Assembly: GCA_012797095.1 (NCBI GenBank)
Contig: JAAZPS010000055.1
Coordinates: 1 to 55,816 of the forward strand
Length of the DNA: 55,816 bases
DNA from: Bacillota bacterium
GTDB taxonomy: Bacteria > Bacillota > Dethiobacteria > DTU022
Direction: 5' to 3'
This document shows positions 1,848 through 14,965 of the stretch, in pieces; the stretch's first letter is position 1; every line of letters starts with the position of its first letter. The notes under the pieces are model-generated. The model ran no database searches. It saw nothing but the letters and a program-made list of their open reading frames with translations, and had not been told where the DNA came from. The position numbers and the translations under genes are program-made.

Positions 1848-2879
1848 ATGATGGGTAAAATAGTGACATTCGGTGAGATCCTGCTCAGGCTGAAAGCACC
1901 CCGTTTTGAAAGGCTGCTGCAATCGCCGTCCCTGGAAGCAACATTCGGGGGAGGAGAGGCCAACGTGGCAGTATCGCTGGCCAATTACGGCAAAGAGGTC
2001 GCCTTTGTTACGGTGCTGCCGGAAAATGATCTGTCGCTCCATTGTATTGGCGAACTGAGAAGGTTTGCTGTCGATACGTCGGCGATCAGATTCGGGGCGG
2101 GACGCCTGGGGATCTATTTCCTGGAAAGCGGAGCAGCGCAAAGGCCCTCCCGGGTGATCTACGATCGGGAGCACTCGGCCATAGCGCTGGCCGAAAGCGG
2201 GGCTCTTGACTGGGAAAATATTTTCGAAGGGGCGGCATGGTTTCATCTCACCGGAATTACCCCCGCACTCAGCCCCTCGGCAGCAGCCCTTTCCCTGGAA
2301 GCGGTCAAGACGGCAAAAAAAATGGGCCTGGTGGTCTCCTGCGATCTCAATTACCGGAGCAAACTGTGGAGATACGGTAAAAGTGCGGTGGAGGTGATGA
2401 CCGGGCTGGTCCAGTACGTCGATGTGGGGATCGGCAACGAGGAGGATTGCCAGAGGTCCCTCGGTATAACTGCGGAAACAGATGTGGACAGGGGCCAGCT
2501 CGATCCGGAGCAATATCAACTGCTGACCGGAAAGGTGCTGGCAACGTTTCCCCGGATGAAGCTATTGGCCGTAACCCTGCGGGAAAGTATCAGCGCAAGC
2601 CACAATGTTTGGTCGGCCTGCATCAACGATCGGGTTGATTTCTACCACAGCCGCAAATATGATCTGACCCATATTGTCGATCGGGTTGGCGGAGGAGATT
2701 CTTTTGCCGCTGCTCTGATCTACGGGTTGACCACTTACGAAAGTAAAAAGAAGGCTCTGGATTTTGCCGCAGCTGCCAGCTGTCTGAAGCATTCGATCAG
2801 CGGCGATTTTAACCGGGTCAAGGTCAGTGAAGTGGAACGGTTGATCGGCGGGCCCGGTTCCGGCAGGGTGGAAAGATAG
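1848..2879 (+). CDS. kdgK: 2-dehydro-3-deoxygluconokinase (PfkB/ribokinase-family sugar kinase)
   Basis: N-terminus [12 protein letters not shown]...[12 protein letters not shown] and C-terminal [16 protein letters not shown] fit the PfkB signature. GAGGAG lies upstream of ATG 1848; GTG 1845 and ATG 1851 are alternative starts. Confidence 0.8.
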
Positions 2880-7202: not shown

Positions 7203-7457
7203 ATGGTAAAAACATTATATGTGGGGAATATCCCCTGGAGCACCACGGAAAGCCAGTTGGAAGAATTTTTTGGGCAGTACGGCCAGGTGCTGGGCTGCCG
7301 GATAATCACGGAAAGATCAACTGGCCGTTCTAGGGGGTACGGGTTTGTTGAGGTTAACGAAGACGAGATGGAAGAGATCATGGAGAAGACCAATGGGGCC
7401 GAACTCGATGGAAGAAAGATAGTAGTCAACGAGGCAAAGCCCCGGGAACAGTTCTAG
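7203..7457 (+). CDS. small RRM-domain RNA-binding protein (84 aa)
   Basis: RNP2 LYVGNI and RNP1 RGYGFVEV are present in one RRM with no Gly-rich tail. SD GGAGGTGA precedes the ATG. Confidence 0.9.
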   Translation: MVKTLYVGNIPWSTTESQLEEFFGQYGQVLGCRIITERSTGRSRGYGFVEVNEDEMEEIMEKTNGAELDGRKIVVNEAKPREQF

Positions 7458-7523
7458 AGACGGCTGTTGTTTGCAGATCAAAAGACGCAATCTTCCGGAG
7501 ATTCCTGACGGGGATCGGCCGGG

Positions 7524-8123: not shown

Positions 8124-9338
8124 ATGAATTACAGCAGGTCTTACCTGCTGCAGAAGCCGAAGAAGACGGTGCGCCGCAAAAGTAAAAGAGTTGTTGTCCT
8201 GGCAGCGTTGATGCTCCTGATCCTGGCTGTAGTTTTCTCGGCCAATCTTATCTCGACCTTTCGTTCTATTCACAACAGCGCCGATTGGGCCGGGGCTCTG
8301 CGTCTGCAGAAGCGCGGCGACGAGCAGATCTACCTTCTCTACGGGGTTGATTACCGGGGCGCCAGCCCCTATATCGATCGGTTGCTGCTTCTACATCATG
8401 ATCCCGTCAATGCAGCCGTCAGTCTGCTGTACATCCCCGGGAACACCCTGATCGAGACAGAGGATGGTTCCTCGGAACCGCTGGGAAGACTATACCGTCA
8501 TCTGGAGGAACCTGCCTTCATCGAGCTGGTTCAGGAACTGACCGGCATACCGGTGCACCATTATCTCACCCTGGATTATCAGGTGATCGCGGTCCTGGGG
8601 GATTACCTGGGCGGGGTGGAAAATGCGGGGCTGGAGGGCGAAACAGGTGCCGGAATCCAGCCACCGAGGGAGAAAGAGCGGTTAAACGGGTTTGAGCTGT
8701 ACCGCTTTTTTTTAACGGCCGACCATCCGGGGCCGCCCTGGGAACAGCTCTGCCGGCAGCAGCAGATCATGGCGGCACTCTGGAGCAAAATGGAGCGGAA
8801 AAGATTCTGGCAGTGGCCGAAGGTGGTCCGGCTGCTCTCACCGTACCTCGAGACCGATCTTTCCTGGAAAGAACTGACCGCCCTGAAAGAGCAATTTGCC
8901 GGATACAGCTTTGCGGAGATGAAGCAGCTGACCCTCCCGGGGGAAGAAAAGACCATCGGAGGGTATCTCTGCTGGGTTCCCGATGCCGCCGCGATCAGGG
9001 ATATGGCCAATTTGCTCGGTGATGTTTGCCCGGTGAAGTCCTCCGAGGTGCGGGTGGAGGTGCTTAACGGCAGCGGCGTCGAGGGACTCGCTGCCGCTGT
9101 TGCCGCTTTGCTGAAAGAGGAGGGGTTCCAGATCGTCGGAACGGGCAATGCCGATCATTTTAACTATACGGCAACACAGGTGATCGCCCTGGGCGAGGAC
9201 GTGGAGAAGGCCAGAGCAGCGGCTCTCTATATACCGGGCGCTGATCTTTCCATGCTCCACCAGCACGATCCGGAGGCTCGGGTCGATGTGAGGGTAATCG
9301 TCGGCAGCAGCTATGCTGAACATAAAAAAAATCCCTGA
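8124..9338 (+). CDS. LytR-CpsA-Psr (LCP) family protein with C-terminal LytR_C domain
   Basis: There is an N-terminal TM anchor. The LCP core reads YLLYGVD...DRLLLLHHDP...LLYIPGNT. The C-terminal segment VEVLNGSGVEGLAA...L...GF.IVGTGNA fits LytR_C. Confidence 0.85.
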   Translation: MNYSRSYLLQKPKKTVRRKSKRVVVLAALMLLILAVVFSANLISTFRSIHNSADWAGALRLQKRGDEQIYLLYGVDYRGASPYIDRLLLLHHDPVNAAVSLLYIPGNTLIETEDGSSEPLGRLYRHLEEPAFIELVQELTGIPVHHYLTLDYQVIAVLGDYLGGVENAGLEGETGAGIQPPREKERLNGFELYRFFLTADHPGPPWEQLCRQQQIMAALWSKMERKRFWQWPKVVRLLSPYLETDLSWKELTALKEQFAGYSFAEMKQLTLPGEEKTIGGYLCWVPDAAAIRDMANLLGDVCPVKSSEVRVEVLNGSGVEGLAAAVAALLKEEGFQIVGTGNADHFNYTATQVIALGEDVEKARAAALYIPGADLSMLHQHDPEARVDVRVIVGSSYAEHKKNP

Positions 9339-9360
9339 GCAATCCAAGGAGGTGAACTGC

Positions 9361-9714
9361 TTGTCGGGATCGGCAAGCGGCTCCCGGAAGTTGGCGTTAT
9401 GGGCGGCCGAGCTGGCCGCCGAGAAGATGGCAGAAGATCTGACCCTGCTGGAAATAGGCCGGGTTTCGATCATTGCCGATTACTTTTTGATCGCTACGGG
9501 CGCAACGCGGATCCGGGTGCAGACCATCGGCGATCACCTGATCGAGAGGATTAAAAGAGCAGGTTTTACCCTGCAGCGGATGGAAGGTTACCGCGAAGGA
9601 TGGTGGATCATCCTCGATTTCGGTGATCTGGTGGTGCATCTGTTACAGCCTGAAGCGAGAGAGTTTTACAATCTGGAGCGGCTCTGGAGCAGGGCCCCCC
9701 TGGTCAACCTTTGA
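9361..9714 (+). CDS. rsfS: ribosome silencing factor RsfS
   Basis: AEDLTLLEIGRVSIIADYFLIATG......I.D.L.......G....MEGY.EGWWIILDFGDLVVHL...EAREFYNLERLW fits RsfS. I place the start at TTG 9361, 5 nt after AAGGAGGTGA. The track start 9313 overlaps the LCP gene. Confidence 0.9.
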   Translation: MSGSASGSRKLALWAAELAAEKMAEDLTLLEIGRVSIIADYFLIATGATRIRVQTIGDHLIERIKRAGFTLQRMEGYREGWWIILDFGDLVVHLLQPEAREFYNLERLWSRAPLVNL

Positions 9715-9833
9715 CGGAGTTTCGGAAAGGCCGCGGCGCGCTTTTGGACCCTGCCCCGGGGGCAAGCGCTGTTTAAAGGATCGGCCGGAAGGTTCTGCTC
9801 GTGTTACTGTCGCCGCCTTTTTGGGGGATAAGG

Positions 9834-10697
9834 ATGATCGCCGATAAGGCCAAAGAGATGATCAAGCGGGCTGCCCGGCGGGAGACTGCTCCTACCGGTG
9901 TGAGCTGCTGCCTGCTCCCGTTCGGCGATCTTCTTCTGTTGTCCCGCAAACTGAAACTGTCCCGCCGTGATCTGGAGATTGCCGCCCTGGAGGTTGGGGT
10001 AATTCCGGAAAGATACCACCGCCACATCGGCCTGATCGGCATCGCCGGGCAGCTGAAGCTGCTCCGCTCGAGGGTCGGCCTGGCCGGTGCTGGCGGGCTG
10101 GGCGGTTACGCCGTGGAGCTGCTTGCCCGGAGCGGTATCGGCTCCCTGATCGTGATCGACGACGACTGTTTCACCGCGGGGAACCTTAACCGCCAGCTCC
10201 AGGCCTCCGAGAGCACCCTGGGGATGAGCAAGGCTGAAGAGGCAGTCCGGCGGGTGCGGGAGATCAATGGTGCTGTCGAGGCGGCAGCACACCGCTGCCG
10301 CGGCAGCGCTTCAAATTGGCCCCGACTGCTGCGGGGCTGCAATCTGGTGCTGGACTGCCTTGATAATCTGCCTTCACGTTTTGCCCTGGAAGAGGCCTGC
10401 CAGGAGCTGGCGATACCGCTGGTGCACGGCGCTATCGATGGATTCATGGGCCAGGTGGCGGTGATCCGGCCGGGTCAGCCGCTCCTGGCGACGATCTACG
10501 GTCAGCGGGGTGGGCAGCGCACTGATCGCGGCGGGGCTGCGGAGACCCTTTCCTTTACTCCCTCCCTGGTGGCAGCGCAGCAGACTGCTGAAGCGGTGAA
10601 GCTGCTGGCCGGTTTTGATCGAACTGACGAGACCGTTCTTCTGCTGATCGATCTATTTTCCGGCGAAGTGGCCCGGATAGCGTTGACCCCCGGCTGA
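9834..10697 (+). CDS. ThiF/MoeB/HesA-family E1-like adenylyltransferase
   Basis: ERYHRHIGLIGIAGQLKL...VGLAGAGGLGGYAVELLARSGIG.L.VIDDD.....NLNRQ fits the family. No ThiS/MoaD-like gene lies next to it. The start is ATG 9834 or GTG 9801. Confidence 0.8.
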   Translation: MIADKAKEMIKRAARRETAPTGVSCCLLPFGDLLLLSRKLKLSRRDLEIAALEVGVIPERYHRHIGLIGIAGQLKLLRSRVGLAGAGGLGGYAVELLARSGIGSLIVIDDDCFTAGNLNRQLQASESTLGMSKAEEAVRRVREINGAVEAAAHRCRGSASNWPRLLRGCNLVLDCLDNLPSRFALEEACQELAIPLVHGAIDGFMGQVAVIRPGQPLLATIYGQRGGQRTDRGGAAETLSFTPSLVAAQQTAEAVKLLAGFDRTDETVLLLIDLFSGEVARIALTPG

Positions 10698-10807
10698 ACT
10701 GTCTCCGATCTGCTGAGCGAGCGGCCTCTTTGGCGGCGGCAGCCCCGGGGAAAAGATGCGGAGGCCCGGATGATCCCCTTCCAGGGCCGGTTTTGAGCGG
10801 CGATCAC

Positions 10808-10836
10808 TTGACAAGGCTGCTTGGGGTGCGTATAAT
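10808..10836 (+). promoter_or_regulatory. consensus sigma-A promoter driving the leuS T-box leader
   Basis: Perfect TTGACA (10808-10813), a 17 nt spacer, then perfect TATAAT (10831-10836). Confidence 0.75.
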
Positions 10837-11054
10837 CAATCATGAATTCAGGACAGCTTTTAGAAAACCTGGCTTGAAAACGATTCGGTGAAGGGGAGCA
10901 GTAAGCAGCCGAACCGGCACCCTAGAGAGCCTGCGGACGGTGTGAGCCGGCAGGCCGGCGGTTGCGGAACTCGCCCCGGAGAAGCGGCGGTAAACTTTGC
11001 CGGTAGCCGCTGCCGCGCGGCCGCGTTAAAGGCTTGAAGAGGGCAGCAATTCAT

Positions 11055-11130
11055 GGGGCTGTAGCGCAGGTGGGAGCGCGCTTCCTTGGCATGGAAGAGG
11101 CCGCGGGTTCGACTCCCGCCAGCTCCACCA
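11055..11130 (+). tRNA. tRNA-Ala (anticodon GGC), CCA encoded
   Basis: The manual fold is: acceptor GGGGCTG/CAGCTCC with G3:U70; U8; D arm GCGC-AGGTGGGA-GCGC; anticodon arm CTTCC-TTGGCAT-GGAAG; 5 nt variable loop; T arm GCGGG-TTCGACT-CCCGC; A73; CCA. The total is 76 nt. Confidence 0.9.
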
Positions 11131-11165
11131 AATTGTTCGCCAAAAAGGGTGGTACCGCGGGAAAA

Positions 11166-11192
11166 CCCGCCCCTTGCCGGGCGGGTATTTTT
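11166..11192 (+). terminator. T-box attenuator terminator
   Basis: CCCGCCC (11166-11172) pairs with GGGCGGG (11179-11185) around a 6 nt loop, followed by TATTTTT. The 5' arm is shared with the antiterminator. Confidence 0.85.
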
Positions 11193-11236
11193 CTGTATTT
11201 CCATCGTTTAACTTGAAATGGGGGGCAGTTATCAAG

Positions 11237-13726
11237 ATGAAGGGTTACAAACCCCAAACCATTGAACCCAAATGGCAGCGGAGGTGGGCTGCGGAGCGCT
11301 CCTATCATGCTCCGGTAGATCCCTCCCGTCAGAAGTACTACGTGCTGGAGATGTTTCCCTATCCCTCGGGAAAACTGCATATGGGCCATATGCGTGTCTA
11401 CTCCATCGGCGATGTCTTGGCCCGATTTTTACGGATGCGCGGCTTCAATGTTGTTCATCCCATGGGCTGGGATGCTTTCGGGCTGCCTGCGGAGAATGCG
11501 GCCATAGAGAACCGGGTCAGCCCCGATCGATGGACGGCGCAGAGCATAGCCCAGATGAAGCAGCAGCAGCAGCGCCTGGGGGTCAGTTACGACTGGGAAA
11601 GGGAAGTGAACACCAGCTCGCCGGATTACTATCGCTGGACCCAATGGCTTTTTCTGCTGCTTTACCGGCGCGGACTGGCTTACCGGAGGAAGGCAGCGGT
11701 CAACTGGTGCCCGTACTGTCAGACCGTCCTGGCGAACGAGCAGGTTGAAGCCGGTCTTTGCTGGCGTTGCGAGAGCGTGGTCGAGCATCAGGAGCGGGAG
11801 CAGTGGTTCTTGCGGATCACCGATTATGCCGATCGCCTGCTGAGCGATCTGGATCTGCTCGAAGACTGGCCCGAACGGGTCAAGGTGATGCAGCGGAACT
11901 GGATCGGGCGCAGCGAGGGCGCCGAGATAGTTTTCCGGATCAAGGATTTCCCCGGGGAAAATCTGCCTGTCTTTACGACCCGCCCCGACACCCTTTTCGG
12001 GGTGACCTATATGGTTATCGCCCCGGAGCATCCCCTGGTTCACCGCCTGGTGGCGGGGACGGAAAAAGAGAAAGAAGTGATGGATTTTGTGGCCCGGGTG
12101 AGGCGGGAAAGCGAAATAGAAAGGACCTCGGAGGACTCACCGAAAATAGGGCTTTTCACCGGCAGGTATGCCCTCAACCCCCTCAGCGGTGCAGCCGTGC
12201 CCATCCTCGTGGGCAACTATGTGATCATGAGCTACGGCACCGGCGCGGTGATGGGGGTGCCGGCGCATGACGAGCGCGACTTTCAGTTTGCCCGTAGCTA
12301 TGATCTTCCGGTCAGGGCGGTGATCCGTCCGCCGGAGGCGGAAAAAGGTGAAGGTGCCCCCGAATTTAACCTGCCCTATACCGGTGAAGGGGTCATGATC
12401 AATTCGGATCAATTCAACGGCCTCCACAGTGCTGACGGGGTCGGACGGATCACCGAAAAATTGCGGGAGCAGGGATGCGGCCAGTTCAAGATCAGCTACC
12501 GCCTGCGCGACTGGCTCATCTCGCGCCAGCGTTACTGGGGGGCGCCGATACCGGTGATCTACTGCGATCGCTGCGGGATCGTGCCGGTACCCGAGGAGGC
12601 CCTGCCGGTGCTCCTTCCCCCGGCGGCGGATCTATCGGGCGACCGCGTACCGCCGCTTTCGCAGTACCGCAGTTTTGTCGAGACCAGCTGTCCGGAATGC
12701 GGGGGGGCGGCCCGGCGCGAGACCGATACCATGGATACATTCATGTGCTCCTCCTGGTATTTCTTGCGCTATACCAGCCCCCGGCTGGAGAGCTTTCCTT
12801 TTGACCGGGAAGCGGCCGATTACTGGATGCCCGTGGATCAGTATATCGGGGGAATCGAGCACGCCGTGCTGCACCTGCTCTATGCGCGTTTCTTTACCAA
12901 GGTGCTTTACGATGCCGGGCTGGTAGGGGTGGAGGAACCGTTCAGCCGCCTTTTGGCCCAGGGGATGGTCTACAAGGACGGGGCCAAGATGTCCAAGTCC
13001 AAGGGCAATGTGGTCTCTCCCGATGAAATTGTTGAACGTTACGGCGCCGATACCGGCCGGCTTTTTATCCTGTTTGCCTCTCCGCCGGAAAAAGATCTTG
13101 ACTGGAACGATCAGGGGGTCGAAGGATGCCACCGTTTCTTGCGAAGGGTCTGGCGTCTGATCGAGGAATGCAGCGAAATCCGGGAGGGTGGCCCCGGCGG
13201 GGTTGCCGGCGGGCTGGGAGAGGCAGAGGTGGAGCTGCAGCGGGTGCTGCACGGGACGATCAGGAAGGTTACCATTGATATCGAGGAGCGTTTCAATTTC
13301 AATACGGCGATCAGCGCGGTGATGGAGCTGGTTAATGCTGTTTACGACTACCGTCGGGAGATCGCCCTGGACAGACAGAGCCGCTCCCTTTTGCAGGAGC
13401 TCTTGAGAACGCTGACCCTGCTGCTGGCGCCCTTTGCGCCTCATCTGGCCGAGGAAGCCTGGCAGACCCTGGGCTGCGGGGGCAGCGTCCATCAGCAGCC
13501 CTGGCCGGACTTCGATCCGGAGGCCCTGGCGGTAGAGGAAGTGGAAGTGGTTATCCAGATCAACGGTAAGGTGCGGGGCCGGATGCAGGTCCCCGCTGGA
13601 GCTGCCGCAGAGAAGCTGCTGCAGCGGGCCCGGGAGCAGCAGCGGATCGGCGAACTGCTGGAAGGTAAACAGGTGCTGCGTCAGATCATCGTTCCCGATA
13701 AGCTGATCAATATCGTGGTCCGGTGA
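11237..13726 (+). CDS. leuS: leucine--tRNA ligase
   Basis: MKGYKPQTIEPKWQRRW..., the HIGH-type motif PYPSGKLHMGH, the KMSKS motif and editing-domain motifs are all present. The start is ATG 11237, after a G-rich SD. The track start 11174 lies inside the terminator. Confidence 0.97.
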   Translation: MKGYKPQTIEPKWQRRWAAERSYHAPVDPSRQKYYVLEMFPYPSGKLHMGHMRVYSIGDVLARFLRMRGFNVVHPMGWDAFGLPAENAAIENRVSPDRWTAQSIAQMKQQQQRLGVSYDWEREVNTSSPDYYRWTQWLFLLLYRRGLAYRRKAAVNWCPYCQTVLANEQVEAGLCWRCESVVEHQEREQWFLRITDYADRLLSDLDLLEDWPERVKVMQRNWIGRSEGAEIVFRIKDFPGENLPVFTTRPDTLFGVTYMVIAPEHPLVHRLVAGTEKEKEVMDFVARVRRESEIERTSEDSPKIGLFTGRYALNPLSGAAVPILVGNYVIMSYGTGAVMGVPAHDERDFQFARSYDLPVRAVIRPPEAEKGEGAPEFNLPYTGEGVMINSDQFNGLHSADGVGRITEKLREQGCGQFKISYRLRDWLISRQRYWGAPIPVIYCDRCGIVPVPEEALPVLLPPAADLSGDRVPPLSQYRSFVETSCPECGGAARRETDTMDTFMCSSWYFLRYTSPRLESFPFDREAADYWMPVDQYIGGIEHAVLHLLYARFFTKVLYDAGLVGVEEPFSRLLAQGMVYKDGAKMSKSKGNVVSPDEIVERYGADTGRLFILFASPPEKDLDWNDQGVEGCHRFLRRVWRLIEECSEIREGGPGGVAGGLGEAEVELQRVLHGTIRKVTIDIEERFNFNTAISAVMELVNAVYDYRREIALDRQSRSLLQELLRTLTLLLAPFAPHLAEEAWQTLGCGGSVHQQPWPDFDPEALAVEEVEVVIQINGKVRGRMQVPAGAAAEKLLQRAREQQRIGELLEGKQVLRQIIVPDKLINIVVR

Positions 13727-13759
13727 TGGGATCATTTCCGATCAAAGGAGGACAGTGCA

Positions 13760-14191
13760 ATGAGTTCACGAGAAAACGGTCGCGGTAAGGGCTTGCCGGG
13801 TGAAAAAACAGAGGAAAAGGATAGCGTGCGGATCTCGCCCGATGTTATCGGCATCGTTGCCGGCATAGCCGCCCAGGAGGTTGCCGGCATAGCCGGTATG
13901 AGCGGGGGAATTGTTGACGGAATTGCGCAGAGGCTCGGCCGGAAGGATTTCAGCAAGGGGATCAAGGTGACCCTAGAAAAGGAGACGGTCTCGCTCGATC
14001 TGGCCGTGGTGGTCGATTATGGAGTCAAGATCATGGAGACGGCCAGGGATCTGAAGGAGAAGGTTCGCAGCACCGTGGAGGAGGTTACCGGACTGGCAGT
14101 GGCATCGATCAAGGTCAATGTGGTCGGGATCAATCTGGCCAGGGAGCAGGCCGGAGATTCATCATCGCAGGAAGATAACGACGAGCTATGA
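13760..14191 (+). CDS. Asp23/Gls24-family (alkaline shock) protein
   Basis: ISPDVIGIVAGIAAQEVAGIAGM...V.LDL.VVVDYGV.I.E.A..L...V...VE..TGL.V..I.V.V fits the family. Confidence 0.9.
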   Translation: MSSRENGRGKGLPGEKTEEKDSVRISPDVIGIVAGIAAQEVAGIAGMSGGIVDGIAQRLGRKDFSKGIKVTLEKETVSLDLAVVVDYGVKIMETARDLKEKVRSTVEEVTGLAVASIKVNVVGINLAREQAGDSSSQEDNDEL

Positions 14192-14201
14192 TCCGGCGGA
14201 G

Positions 14202-14227
14202 CGCCTTTCATCCGAAAGGCGTTTGTT
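14202..14227 (+). terminator. probable intrinsic terminator after the Asp23-family gene
   Basis: An 8 bp stem CGCCTTTC/GAAAGGCG with loop ATCC, followed by TTTGTT. Confidence 0.55.
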
Positions 14228-14365
14228 CCATCCACCCGTAATTTGAATCTGAAACAGGATTCGCACCCGGAATTATACCAGTAGATAGCAGCGATCAGGG
14301 GAATACAGGGGAGGGCGGTAAACGCTCTCCCCGGTGAACCATTCTACTGAAGGGGCTGATTCCGG

Positions 14366-14965
14366 ATGTGGGGTACCTTTACCCTGCGCGAGAAAGTTCT
14401 CCTGTTAATGCTGGTCCTTCTTCTGATCGGCGGCGTTCTCTGGAGGATAGCGCCCTCACTGGTGGCGCCGGCTGGTTCCGATGACCGCTCCGGCAAACTG
14501 GTTGAGGATAACCCTCCGCTCTTCCGGGAAGACAATCCCGAATCTGAACCGGAGATGATCACGGTGCATCTGGTCGGGGCGGTGCAGAACCCCGGGGTCT
14601 ATCAGCTGCCGCTGGGTTCGCGGGTATGCGATCTGGTCGAGGCCGGCGGCGGTCCCTCTGCAGAGGCCGATCTGGAAGCGATCAATCTGGCCCGCCCCCT
14701 TTTTGACGGCGAACAGGTGGCGATCCTTCGGCCCGGTGAGGCTGCCGCAAGCAATCCGGCAGCACCGGGACAAAAGGTCAATATCAACAAAGCATCGCTG
14801 GAAGAGCTGCAAACCCTGCCCTCGATCGGGGCTGTGCGCGCGCAGCGTATTGTGGAGCACCGCGATAAACACGGCCCCTTTAGCGCCATCGAAGAGATCA
14901 TGGATATCAGCGGTATCGGCACCGGTATTTTCAATCAGATCAAGGAGCGGATCACGATCTACTAG
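14366..14965 (+). CDS. comEA: competence protein ComEA (SLBB plus helix-hairpin-helix DNA receptor)
   Basis: There is an N-terminal TM segment. The SLBB-like region reads VHLVGAV.NPGVY.LP.GSRV.D. The C-terminal segment INKAS.EELQTLP.IG...A..IV..R...GPF..IE....I.GIG fits the HhH domain. Confidence 0.9.
   Translation: MWGTFTLREKVLLLMLVLLLIGGVLWRIAPSLVAPAGSDDRSGKLVEDNPPLFREDNPESEPEMITVHLVGAVQNPGVYQLPLGSRVCDLVEAGGGPSAEADLEAINLARPLFDGEQVAILRPGEAAASNPAAPGQKVNINKASLEELQTLPSIGAVRAQRIVEHRDKHGPFSAIEEIMDISGIGTGIFNQIKERITIY

Follow-up and report, generated by a model that had tools for sequence, protein, structure and literature searches.

Can a riboswitch leader that senses one transfer RNA (tRNA) carry within it the gene for another, and what would become of both when that leader is transcribed? 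The question is raised by a 55,816-nucleotide (nt) stretch of DNA from a Bacillota bacterium (assembly GCA_012797095.1, contig JAAZPS010000055.1), here called the window, in which a tRNA-Ala(GGC) gene is nested in the T-box leader of leuS, the gene for leucyl-tRNA synthetase. A preliminary description, made from the sequence alone, had placed the tRNA gene within the leader and upstream of the attenuation terminator; ARAGORN and Rfam agree on this placement, and the nesting is confirmed. The description had treated the locus as a single curiosity, and in this it was mistaken, as the arrangement instead marks a family conserved across phyla. We think it probable that a working leucine-specific T-box precedes leuS and that its leader, transcribed constitutively, doubles as a precursor of tRNA-Ala, with a real tRNA gene in the apex of Stem III.

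The leader and its tRNA in the window

ARAGORN finds tRNA-Ala(ggc) at 11055-11130 on the plus strand, the sole tRNA of the 55.8-kilobase (kb) window, and the Rfam tRNA model RF00005 scores 65.3 bits at 11055-11127 (gathering score 29). The T-box model RF00230 scores 94.2 bits against a gathering score of 93, and in its alignment the 13 consensus positions at Stem III face an insertion of 94 nt, which is the tRNA plus short flanks. At gathering thresholds Rfam gives two matches in this region, the T-box and the tRNA. A tRNA detector and covariance models had been proposed as a check, and both elements score. The promoter, AG bulge, distal loop, CUC specifier, F-box-like motif, UGGU bulge and leuS were likewise all recovered where the preliminary description had read them. 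The features, with the evidence for each in brackets, are as follows.

10808-10836, plus strand: sigma-70-type promoter, TTGACA (10808-10813), 17-nt spacer, TATAAT (10831-10836) (12/12 consensus matches)
10879-11177, plus strand: T-box leader, Rfam RF00230, a full-length match across the tRNA (94.2 bits, E 2e-19, model positions 1-219)
10885-10981, plus strand: Stem I, approximate bounds (Rfam alignment and sequence)
10924-10929, plus strand: AG bulge AGAGAG, in Stem I (Rfam alignment and sequence)
10939-10946, plus strand: distal loop GGTGTGAG, in Stem I (Rfam alignment and sequence)
10967-10973, plus strand: specifier loop GAA-CUC-G (Rfam alignment and sequence)
10970-10972, plus strand: specifier codon CUC (Leu), expected partner tRNA-Leu(GAG) (sequence and Rfam alignment)
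10984-11030, plus strand: Stem II and Stem IIA/B region, approximate bounds (Rfam alignment)
11024-11029, plus strand: F-box-like CGTTAA (sequence and Rfam alignment)
11036-11041, plus strand: purine run GAAGAG, 5' of Stem III, the AGNG of the family or RRRNG motif (sequence, family comparison)
11042-11051, plus strand: Stem III base helix, 5' strand GGCAGCAATT (minimum free energy (MFE) and centroid folds, covariation)
11052-11054, plus strand: 3-nt spacer CAT, the pre-tRNA 5' leader, with U at -1 (sequence)
11055-11130, plus strand: tRNA-Ala(GGC), with G3:U70, A73 (11127) and encoded CCA (11128-11130) (ARAGORN, Rfam RF00005)
11131-11141, plus strand: Stem III base helix, 3' strand AATTGTTCGCC (MFE and centroid folds, covariation)
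11142-11159, plus strand: AA motif and T-box sequence AAAAAGGGTGGTACCGCG, with the UGGU bulge at 11150-11153 (sequence, Rfam alignment)
11146-11174, plus strand: antiterminator helix, AGGG/CCCU and GCGGG/CCCGC around the 7-nt bulge UGGUACC (Rfam structure line)
11165-11196, plus strand: intrinsic terminator, stem 11165-11186 then ATTTTTCTGT (8 pairs, 7 of them G-C; fold)
11237-13726, plus strand: leuS, leucyl-tRNA synthetase of 829 amino acids, from the ATG at 11237 (translation, HMGH and KMSKS motifs)

Terminator and antiterminator are mutually exclusive, as 11165-11174 are common to both, and the terminator scan finds the T-run ATTTTTCT directly 3' of the terminator stem (11165-11186). Between 10300 and 11600, TTGACA-17-TATAAT is the single promoter-like site; the T-box terminator was found here as well. 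A product identical to the LeuS of the window carries the Pfam domains tRNA-synt_1 and Anticodon_1.

Does the tRNA take the place of Stem III? The preliminary description had put it at the Stem III position, and that location stands, but there is no replacement: the base helix of Stem III and its flanking motifs are retained, and the tRNA is the apical part. The order in the window is GAAGAG, GGCAGCAATT, CAT, tRNA, AATTGTTCGCC, AAAAAG GGTGG. The MFE and centroid structures from RNAfold both contain the base helix and the acceptor stem. The MFE fold of the window region misses the interior of the cloverleaf and has an unremarkable z-score; only base helix, acceptor stem and terminator were taken from it.

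A family of leaders with the same insertion

How far does this arrangement extend? One genome per bacterial or archaeal species was scanned with the pattern GGTTCRANTCC-N16-46-GGTGGNACCRCG (the T-loop of a tRNA and, after 16-46 nt, the T-box core), which has a single match in the window, with 0.00 expected from shuffled versions of it. The scan gave at least 120 loci, and the census that follows is of the matches listed. A tRNA overlaps the match in 104/120, and it is always tRNA-Ala(GGC), its end lying 9-33 nt from GGTGG in the 104 loci. LeuS is encoded downstream in at least 97 of the 104, with 45-83% identity to the LeuS of the window; among the remaining seven, three loci are too short to judge and four are without LeuS in the available DNA, the locus ending after an interposed gene in those examined. 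There are three further LeuS-linked matches in which the contig ends before the tRNA. The preliminary description had suggested a comparison with the leuS upstream regions of relatives, and identical nesting recurs there, in 104 loci.

The carriers among these matches fall into about four labelled phyla, Chloroflexota, Bacillota, Armatimonadota and Coprothermobacterota, the last represented by a metagenome-assembled genome (MAG). By their record labels the Chloroflexota carriers are many and include Thermomicrobiales, Ktedonobacteria, Anaerolineae, Caldilineae and Limnocylindria, and the Bacillota carriers include Syntrophomonadaceae, Peptococcaceae, Desulfotomaculia-type genera, Thermacetogeniaceae and Gelria. 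Cultured isolates are represented by Desulfotruncus alcoholivorax, Desulfofundulus thermosubterraneus, Tengunoibacter tsumagoiensis and Desulfitispora alkaliphila; a Ktedonobacter racemifer MAG is also a carrier, and at the Thermosyntropha lipolytica locus (L054) the sequence ends before the tRNA. The nearest relatives of the window are MAGs labelled Bacillota and Syntrophomonadaceae, with LeuS identities of 67-83%. The locus is also carried by MAGs labelled as a proteobacterium (L010), Methylocystaceae (L032), Bacteroidales (L037), Proteobacteria (L079) and Solirubrobacterales (L108), each with a Clostridia- or Chloroflexota-like LeuS. To our knowledge these groups are not known for T-boxes, so that mis-binning or mislabelling of the five is likely.

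The pattern admits any tRNA with a GGTTCRANTCC T-loop, and among the matches listed no nested tRNA other than Ala(GGC) was found. Thr(tgt) in L042 and Leu(cag) in L113 are chance matches, with no T-box by a permissive Rfam scan. Phe(gaa) in L090 was treated as a chance match too; it has no T-box at the Rfam gathering score, which was the threshold scanned in this case rather than the permissive one. Pattern matches without a tRNA proved to be an ordinary T-box plus a chance motif (L036), a transfer-messenger RNA (tmRNA; L023), or nothing.

An independent sample of 80 metagenome LeuS loci was chosen regardless of tRNA. Seventy were without a T-box sequence and six too short; three had a T-box with a nested tRNA-Ala(GGC), and one, L123, a T-box without a tRNA. 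The leuS T-box of L123 (2079-2337, 113.7 bits) has a CUC specifier and a Stem III hairpin of about 45 nt, and provides a natural tRNA-less comparator. Across 87 loci the distances between LeuS sequences and between nested tRNAs are correlated (Mantel rho 0.26, 0/999 permutations), which fits transmission of the two as one unit. As the same tRNA stands at the same site everywhere, a single origin is the simplest explanation.

Is the insertion a tRNA gene in good order? G3:U70 and A73 are each present in 105/105 nested tRNAs, and ARAGORN reads the anticodon as GGC, both in the window and at each of the 104 homologous loci among the matches listed. The nested tRNAs are 72-76 nt long, comprise 64 distinct sequences with identities down to 64%, and score 57-70 bits with the Rfam tRNA model. 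The RNAalifold consensus of 26 homologues is a clean cloverleaf with compensatory changes in 15 of its 21 pairs, and in this set G3:U70 stays G:U in 26/26 while neighbouring pairs vary. G3:U70 and A73 are identity elements for alanyl-tRNA synthetase (AlaRS), which does not read the anticodon. A G:U pair that is never converted, together with a constant anticodon that AlaRS does not read, thus points to selection for charging by AlaRS and for decoding, and not to a structural mimic. No second tRNA-Ala(GGC) was found within any of the 8-kb loci.

The ends of the tRNA are more variable. CCA is encoded in 86/105 leaders and absent in 19/105 (18%), so that 3' maturation would differ between lineages. 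On the 5' side, positions -3 to -1 follow the pattern pyrimidine (91%), purine (86%), U (74%) in 101 distinct flanks with a T background of 20%. Bacterial RNase P prefers U(-1), and the predominance of U at this position fits the processing by RNase P that we predict. The Rfam tmRNA model matches the nested tRNAs of L001, L004, L008, L010, L072, L079 and L147 near threshold (39-46 bits against a gathering score of 47); these matches were rejected as tmRNA genes, as they reflect the known likeness of the tRNA-like domain of tmRNA to tRNA-Ala.

The enclosure of the tRNA by Stem III is a family trait. In all leaders the order is AGNG, the 5' strand, a short spacer, the tRNA, a spacer, the 3' strand, AA, 3-5 nt and GGTGG. 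For the helix analysis, 93 distinct flank pairs were taken, with anchors picked independently of pairing. In the base helix 73.5% of cells are paired versus 55.2% in shuffles (0/500), and double-sided changes number 189 versus 82; the covariation score is 0.519, as against 0.220 for shuffled pairs and 0.07-0.16 for slid registers. Pair types alternate at a given position, for example A-U 43, G-C 19 and U-A 4 at one and C-G 48 and U-A 24 at another. The helix is 5-10 base pairs (bp) long across the family, and its 5' and 3' spacers to the tRNA measure 0-20 and 0-23 nt, respectively. Cognate and mismatched flanks were also compared with RNAduplex; the contrast was modest (-13.2 versus -9.1 kcal/mol), as unanchored duplexes find other pairings and many loci are related, and the anchored helix analysis was used instead. 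An RRRNG-Stem III-AA motif has been credited with the rejection of aminoacylated tRNA (the TBDB paper, PMC7778990), and the AGNG and AA flanks of the family match it. With the purine run and AA retained, the discriminator-facing part of Stem III has been preserved, and its distal end alone replaced.

The other T-box determinants are kept as well. Among the 100 leaders with enough upstream sequence, the CUC specifier occurs in 100, the GGTG core of the distal loop in 100 and an AG-bulge-like AGNGA in 99 (both within 230 nt upstream), and an F-box-like CG(T/A)(T/G/A)A motif in 97; a T-run follows within 75 nt of the T-box sequence in 80/105. The downstream gene fits the specified amino acid, being leuS alone or other genes and then leuS. 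Taken together, these determinants look functional, and they suggest that the leaders are leucine-specific transcription-attenuation T-boxes maintained by selection. All 17 leaders scanned gave full-length Rfam T-box matches. Homologue scores with RF00230 run from 50 to 133 bits, and nine of the 17 lie under the gathering score of 93 (L001, L004, L008, L010, L021, L037, L072, L079 and L147, at 50-91 bits, model positions 1-219 and E 1e-8 to 1e-18). The insertion of roughly 90 nt is a plausible cause of the sub-threshold scores, and routine annotation of such loci would show a lone tRNA-Ala gene before leuS.

Two observations bear on the ligand and on the operon. In the Ktedonobacter racemifer MAG (L033, oriented), tRNA-Leu(GAG), the predicted ligand of the CUC specifier, lies at 7420-7502, about 5.7 kb downstream of the leader, where it adjoins tRNA-Val(TAC). 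The genes interposed between leader and leuS, as judged by eye, include a GNAT-like protein of about 190 amino acids in Limnocylindria-type Chloroflexota (L004, L012, L018, L025 and others), a branched-chain aminotransferase-like (ilvE-like) protein of about 310-335 amino acids in Armatimonadota and others, and an AMP-binding, acyl-CoA-ligase-like protein of about 555 amino acids in Desulfotomaculia-type Bacillota. The loci with interposed genes also include L021, L041, L081, L088, L097 and L107, and L015, L044 and L101.

Are leader and tRNA one transcription unit? Promoter-like sites were found within 130 nt upstream of Stem I in 51/79 leaders, and between the start of Stem I and the tRNA, a stretch of roughly 173 nt, in 3/79. 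Runs of five or more Ts occur in the internal stretch in 3/85 leaders versus 50/85 in an equal length after the T-box sequence. The single transcription unit of the preliminary description is therefore supported, consensus scans giving no separate promoter or terminator in the window and essentially none across the family.

What the leader may do, and what else it may be

How would such a leader work? We propose that a single promoter would start every transcript, and that Stem I and Stem II, made first, would capture tRNA-Leu(GAG). The 5' strand of Stem III would come next, followed by the 76-nt tRNA, which would fold by itself, and then by the 3' strand, closing the base helix. The T-box sequence and terminator would emerge within the next 50-60 nt, and the decision between charged and uncharged tRNA-Leu would be made there. 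With the tRNA placed ahead of the terminator, a complete pre-tRNA-Ala would be present in every transcript, whether terminated or read through. Its release would call for RNase P at the 5' end and trimming of the 3' end to the encoded CCA or, where CCA is absent, for RNase Z and CCA addition. Excision would sever Stem I and Stem II from the antiterminator or terminator hairpin and the leuS mRNA. Both the making of tRNA from each transcript and the severing of the leader had been suggested in the preliminary description, and both are plausible. The leader would thus double as a tRNA expression cassette, and the T-box terminator as the terminator of the tRNA. We infer that the decision precedes processing and that processing may affect the stability of the leuS mRNA. 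There is precedent for cuts in T-box leaders, as cited in PMC7913692: the Bacillus subtilis thrS leader is cut just upstream of the terminator stem and the mRNA is stabilised, and the Staphylococcus aureus met leader undergoes cleavage by RNase III, a destabilising cut.

Several points weigh against this proposal. Sequence comparison establishes how the leader is built, that this build is conserved, that the determinants of T-box and tRNA are intact and that internal promoters and terminators are essentially absent; co-transcription, cleavage by RNase P and a mature tRNA from the locus are predictions. The promoter and terminator scans are consensus matches, for sigma-70-like promoters only, and make a weak test. 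In the Ktedonobacteria loci L006 and L061, where a promoter-like site precedes the tRNA by 64-72 nt, an internal start is possible. RNase P could be slowed if leader and trailer pair beside the acceptor stem. The nested copy is the sole tRNA-Ala(GGC) gene within the 8-kb loci, which are the extent of the check, and the proposal does not account for the constant pairing of an Ala(GGC) tRNA with a leuS-containing operon. As to the Ktedonobacteria, both loci have a promoter-like TTGTCG-17-TATAAT (10/12 matches) between Stem II and Stem III, the internal promoter-like sites lying 72 and 45 nt before the nested tRNA in L006 and 64 nt before it in L061. A third internal case, L100, is probably mis-delimited.

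Might tRNA and T-box be neighbours by accident, the tRNA having a promoter of its own, or the T-box decaying while its promoter serves the tRNA alone? The restriction of the scans to a sigma-70-like consensus, the internal promoter-like site in Ktedonobacteria and the many T-boxes under the Rfam threshold could all be taken that way. The low scores, however, belong to full-length matches plausibly lowered by the insertion; internal promoter-like sites and T-runs are confined to the 3/79 and 3/85 leaders noted above, 97-100% of leaders retain the T-box determinants, the CUC specifier among them, and a covarying helix that encloses the tRNA would be pointless for an independent gene. We hold accidental neighbours to be very unlikely. 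An artefact of assembly, or a chimera, is negligible as an explanation: a LeuS identical to that of the window is on record in contig JBJSVX010036919.1 of assembly GCA_046128275.1, which is highly fragmented, but the arrangement is present in 104 independent genomes among the matches listed, cultured isolates included, and in three metagenome contigs, and this recurrence excludes such an artefact. The preliminary description had also offered the encoded 3' ACCA as a built-in acceptor end, pairing in cis with the UGGU bulge of the T-box. The ACCA at 11127-11130 is indeed complementary to the UGGU at 11150-11153, 20 nt downstream, and 86/105 leaders encode CCA; the proposal nonetheless fares badly, as CCA is not encoded in 19/105 leaders that are otherwise intact, the bases just 3' of CCA are engaged in the base helix of Stem III, and ACCA:UGGU pairing is absent from the MFE and centroid folds. 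The match of A73 to the U of the bulge is uninformative, since A73 is standard in tRNA-Ala and tRNA-Leu has it too. As summarised in PMC7778990, even an aminoacyl group on the tRNA end clashes sterically and blocks formation of the antiterminator; an internal ACCA that continues into RNA would presumably be rejected likewise. We regard an acceptor-end mimic as extremely improbable.

A different question is whether the nested tRNA has a role in cis in the switch, a reading that overlaps with a leader doubling as pre-tRNA rather than excluding it, and one that we consider doubtful. The tRNA might serve as a rigid extension of Stem III, as some 90 nt of extra transcription time for the capture of tRNA-Leu, as a built-in RNase P/Z module governing how fast the leader turns over and where the leuS mRNA begins, and hence how stable that mRNA is, or as part of a split riboswitch held together by the base helix. 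That tRNA and position are the same in about four labelled phyla, at LeuS identities as low as 45% among the matches listed, exceeds what hitch-hiking needs, and the pyrimidine-purine-U at -3 to -1 and the 5-10 bp base helix are likewise retained. Equal constancy would result, however, from one ancient insertion made indispensable by the need for the tRNA, and the wide variation in spacer length argues against a precise structural role for the tRNA. Moreover, leuS T-boxes with a CUC specifier work with an ordinary Stem III, as exemplified by the hairpin of about 45 nt in L123; the B. subtilis leuS T-box also has an ordinary Stem III. On the other side, the cut upstream of the terminator in the thrS leader stabilises the mRNA (PMC7913692), as a cis role through processing would have it. 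In its fullest form the idea would be of a composite device in which the tRNA is integral and selected, its maturation dismantling the leader, recycling tRNA-Leu and setting the 5' end or lifetime of the leuS mRNA, perhaps with a two-piece riboswitch assembled on Stem III; we think this unlikely, though not outlandish.

Where might a leader that doubles as pre-tRNA-Ala have come from? In 14 Chloroflexota-type loci (L006, L024, L037, L038, L041, L058, L061, L062, L070, L074, L083, L085, L092 and L104) a tRNA-Ala(CGC) gene stands on the same strand directly 5' of Stem I, 257-390 nt before the nested tRNA. In L041, L104, L058, L070, L083 and L062 its gap to Stem I is just 16-37 nt, so that the T-box appears to lie between two tRNA-Ala genes in one transcript. 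The gap is longer in the Ktedonobacteria L006, L024 and L061, where it holds a promoter-like TTGCAA...TATAGT. The loci from Anaerolineae and Caldilineae, in which the whole T-box sits between tRNA-Ala genes for CGC and GGC with gaps of 16-37 nt, raise the possibility that this T-box lineage was born within, or captured by, a tRNA operon whose terminator became conditional.

Known systems and neighbouring genes

How does the arrangement compare with what is known? The canonical class I T-boxes (RF00230; leuS, tyrS and glyQS of B. subtilis) share with it a Stem I with AG bulge, distal and specifier loops, Stem II and IIA/B, the purine-Stem III-AA order, the UGGN bulge, mutually exclusive antiterminator and terminator, a downstream aminoacyl-tRNA synthetase gene and a CUC specifier. 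Stem III there has a short loop, whereas here it holds a complete 72-76-nt tRNA gene, and the leader is predicted to be a tRNA precursor as well, cut by tRNA-processing enzymes. The thrS and S. aureus met leaders are alike in that an endonuclease parts the T-box leader from the mRNA and affects its stability (PMC7913692), as we predict for the present family. The nucleases there are those of mRNA decay, acting on ordinary leader sequence, whereas the cuts expected here are those of tRNA maturation and would free a tRNA. The met leader is also enlarged, by stem-loops L I-III between Stem IIA/B and the T-box sequence (PMC7913692), but these are plain linker hairpins outside Stem III, and not genes.

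Transfer RNAs within larger transcription units are familiar from the tRNA-Ile and tRNA-Ala(UGC) in the spacers of ribosomal RNA (rRNA) operons and from the thrU-tyrU-glyT-thrT-tufB operon of Escherichia coli. Like the nested tRNA, these have no promoter of their own, are excised from a longer transcript and share one promoter with another product. They lie in spacers, however, whereas the nested tRNA lies inside a helix of an RNA that senses another tRNA, upstream of a conditional terminator. The closest precedent in print is the tRNA embedded in GOLLD RNA (PMC12990946), where a large structured non-coding RNA likewise harbours a tRNA. The function of GOLLD, which occurs in tRNA arrays and prophages, is unknown, whereas the host here is a riboswitch of known function and the site one defined hairpin; the Rfam scan of the window gave no GOLLD match at the gathering score. 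Full-text searches turned up no account of a T-box leader with a tRNA inside it, though an earlier remark in comparative T-box papers is possible; the nested arrangement is apparently undescribed so far.

What would follow from such a leader? Stem III has long been treated as a short, variable hairpin that senses aminoacylation, and a conserved tRNA gene inside it in more than 100 species would surprise specialists. A riboswitch leader, normally discarded when terminated, would serve as precursor to an essential RNA, and the enzymes of tRNA processing are predicted to be tied obligatorily to what becomes of a synthetase mRNA. The T-box decision would tolerate a folded domain of 76 nt placed after Stem II and ahead of the discriminator, and this should be useful in structural and engineering work. 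There is also a gap in annotation, about half of the tested examples scoring below the Rfam T-box gathering score. The cultured carriers, Desulfofundulus, Desulfotruncus, Tengunoibacter and Desulfitispora, with Thermosyntropha as a candidate, open the way to direct tests.

As to the surroundings of the leader, the gene order over about 8124-14965 of the window is LytR_cpsA_psr, RsfS, a ThiF-family gene, the leader with its tRNA, LeuS, Asp23 and a ComEA-like gene (SLBB/HHH_3). At locus L128 a c-di-GMP-I riboswitch (1848-1934, minus strand, 84.4 bits) lies about 200 nt upstream of the nested-tRNA T-box, on the opposite strand.

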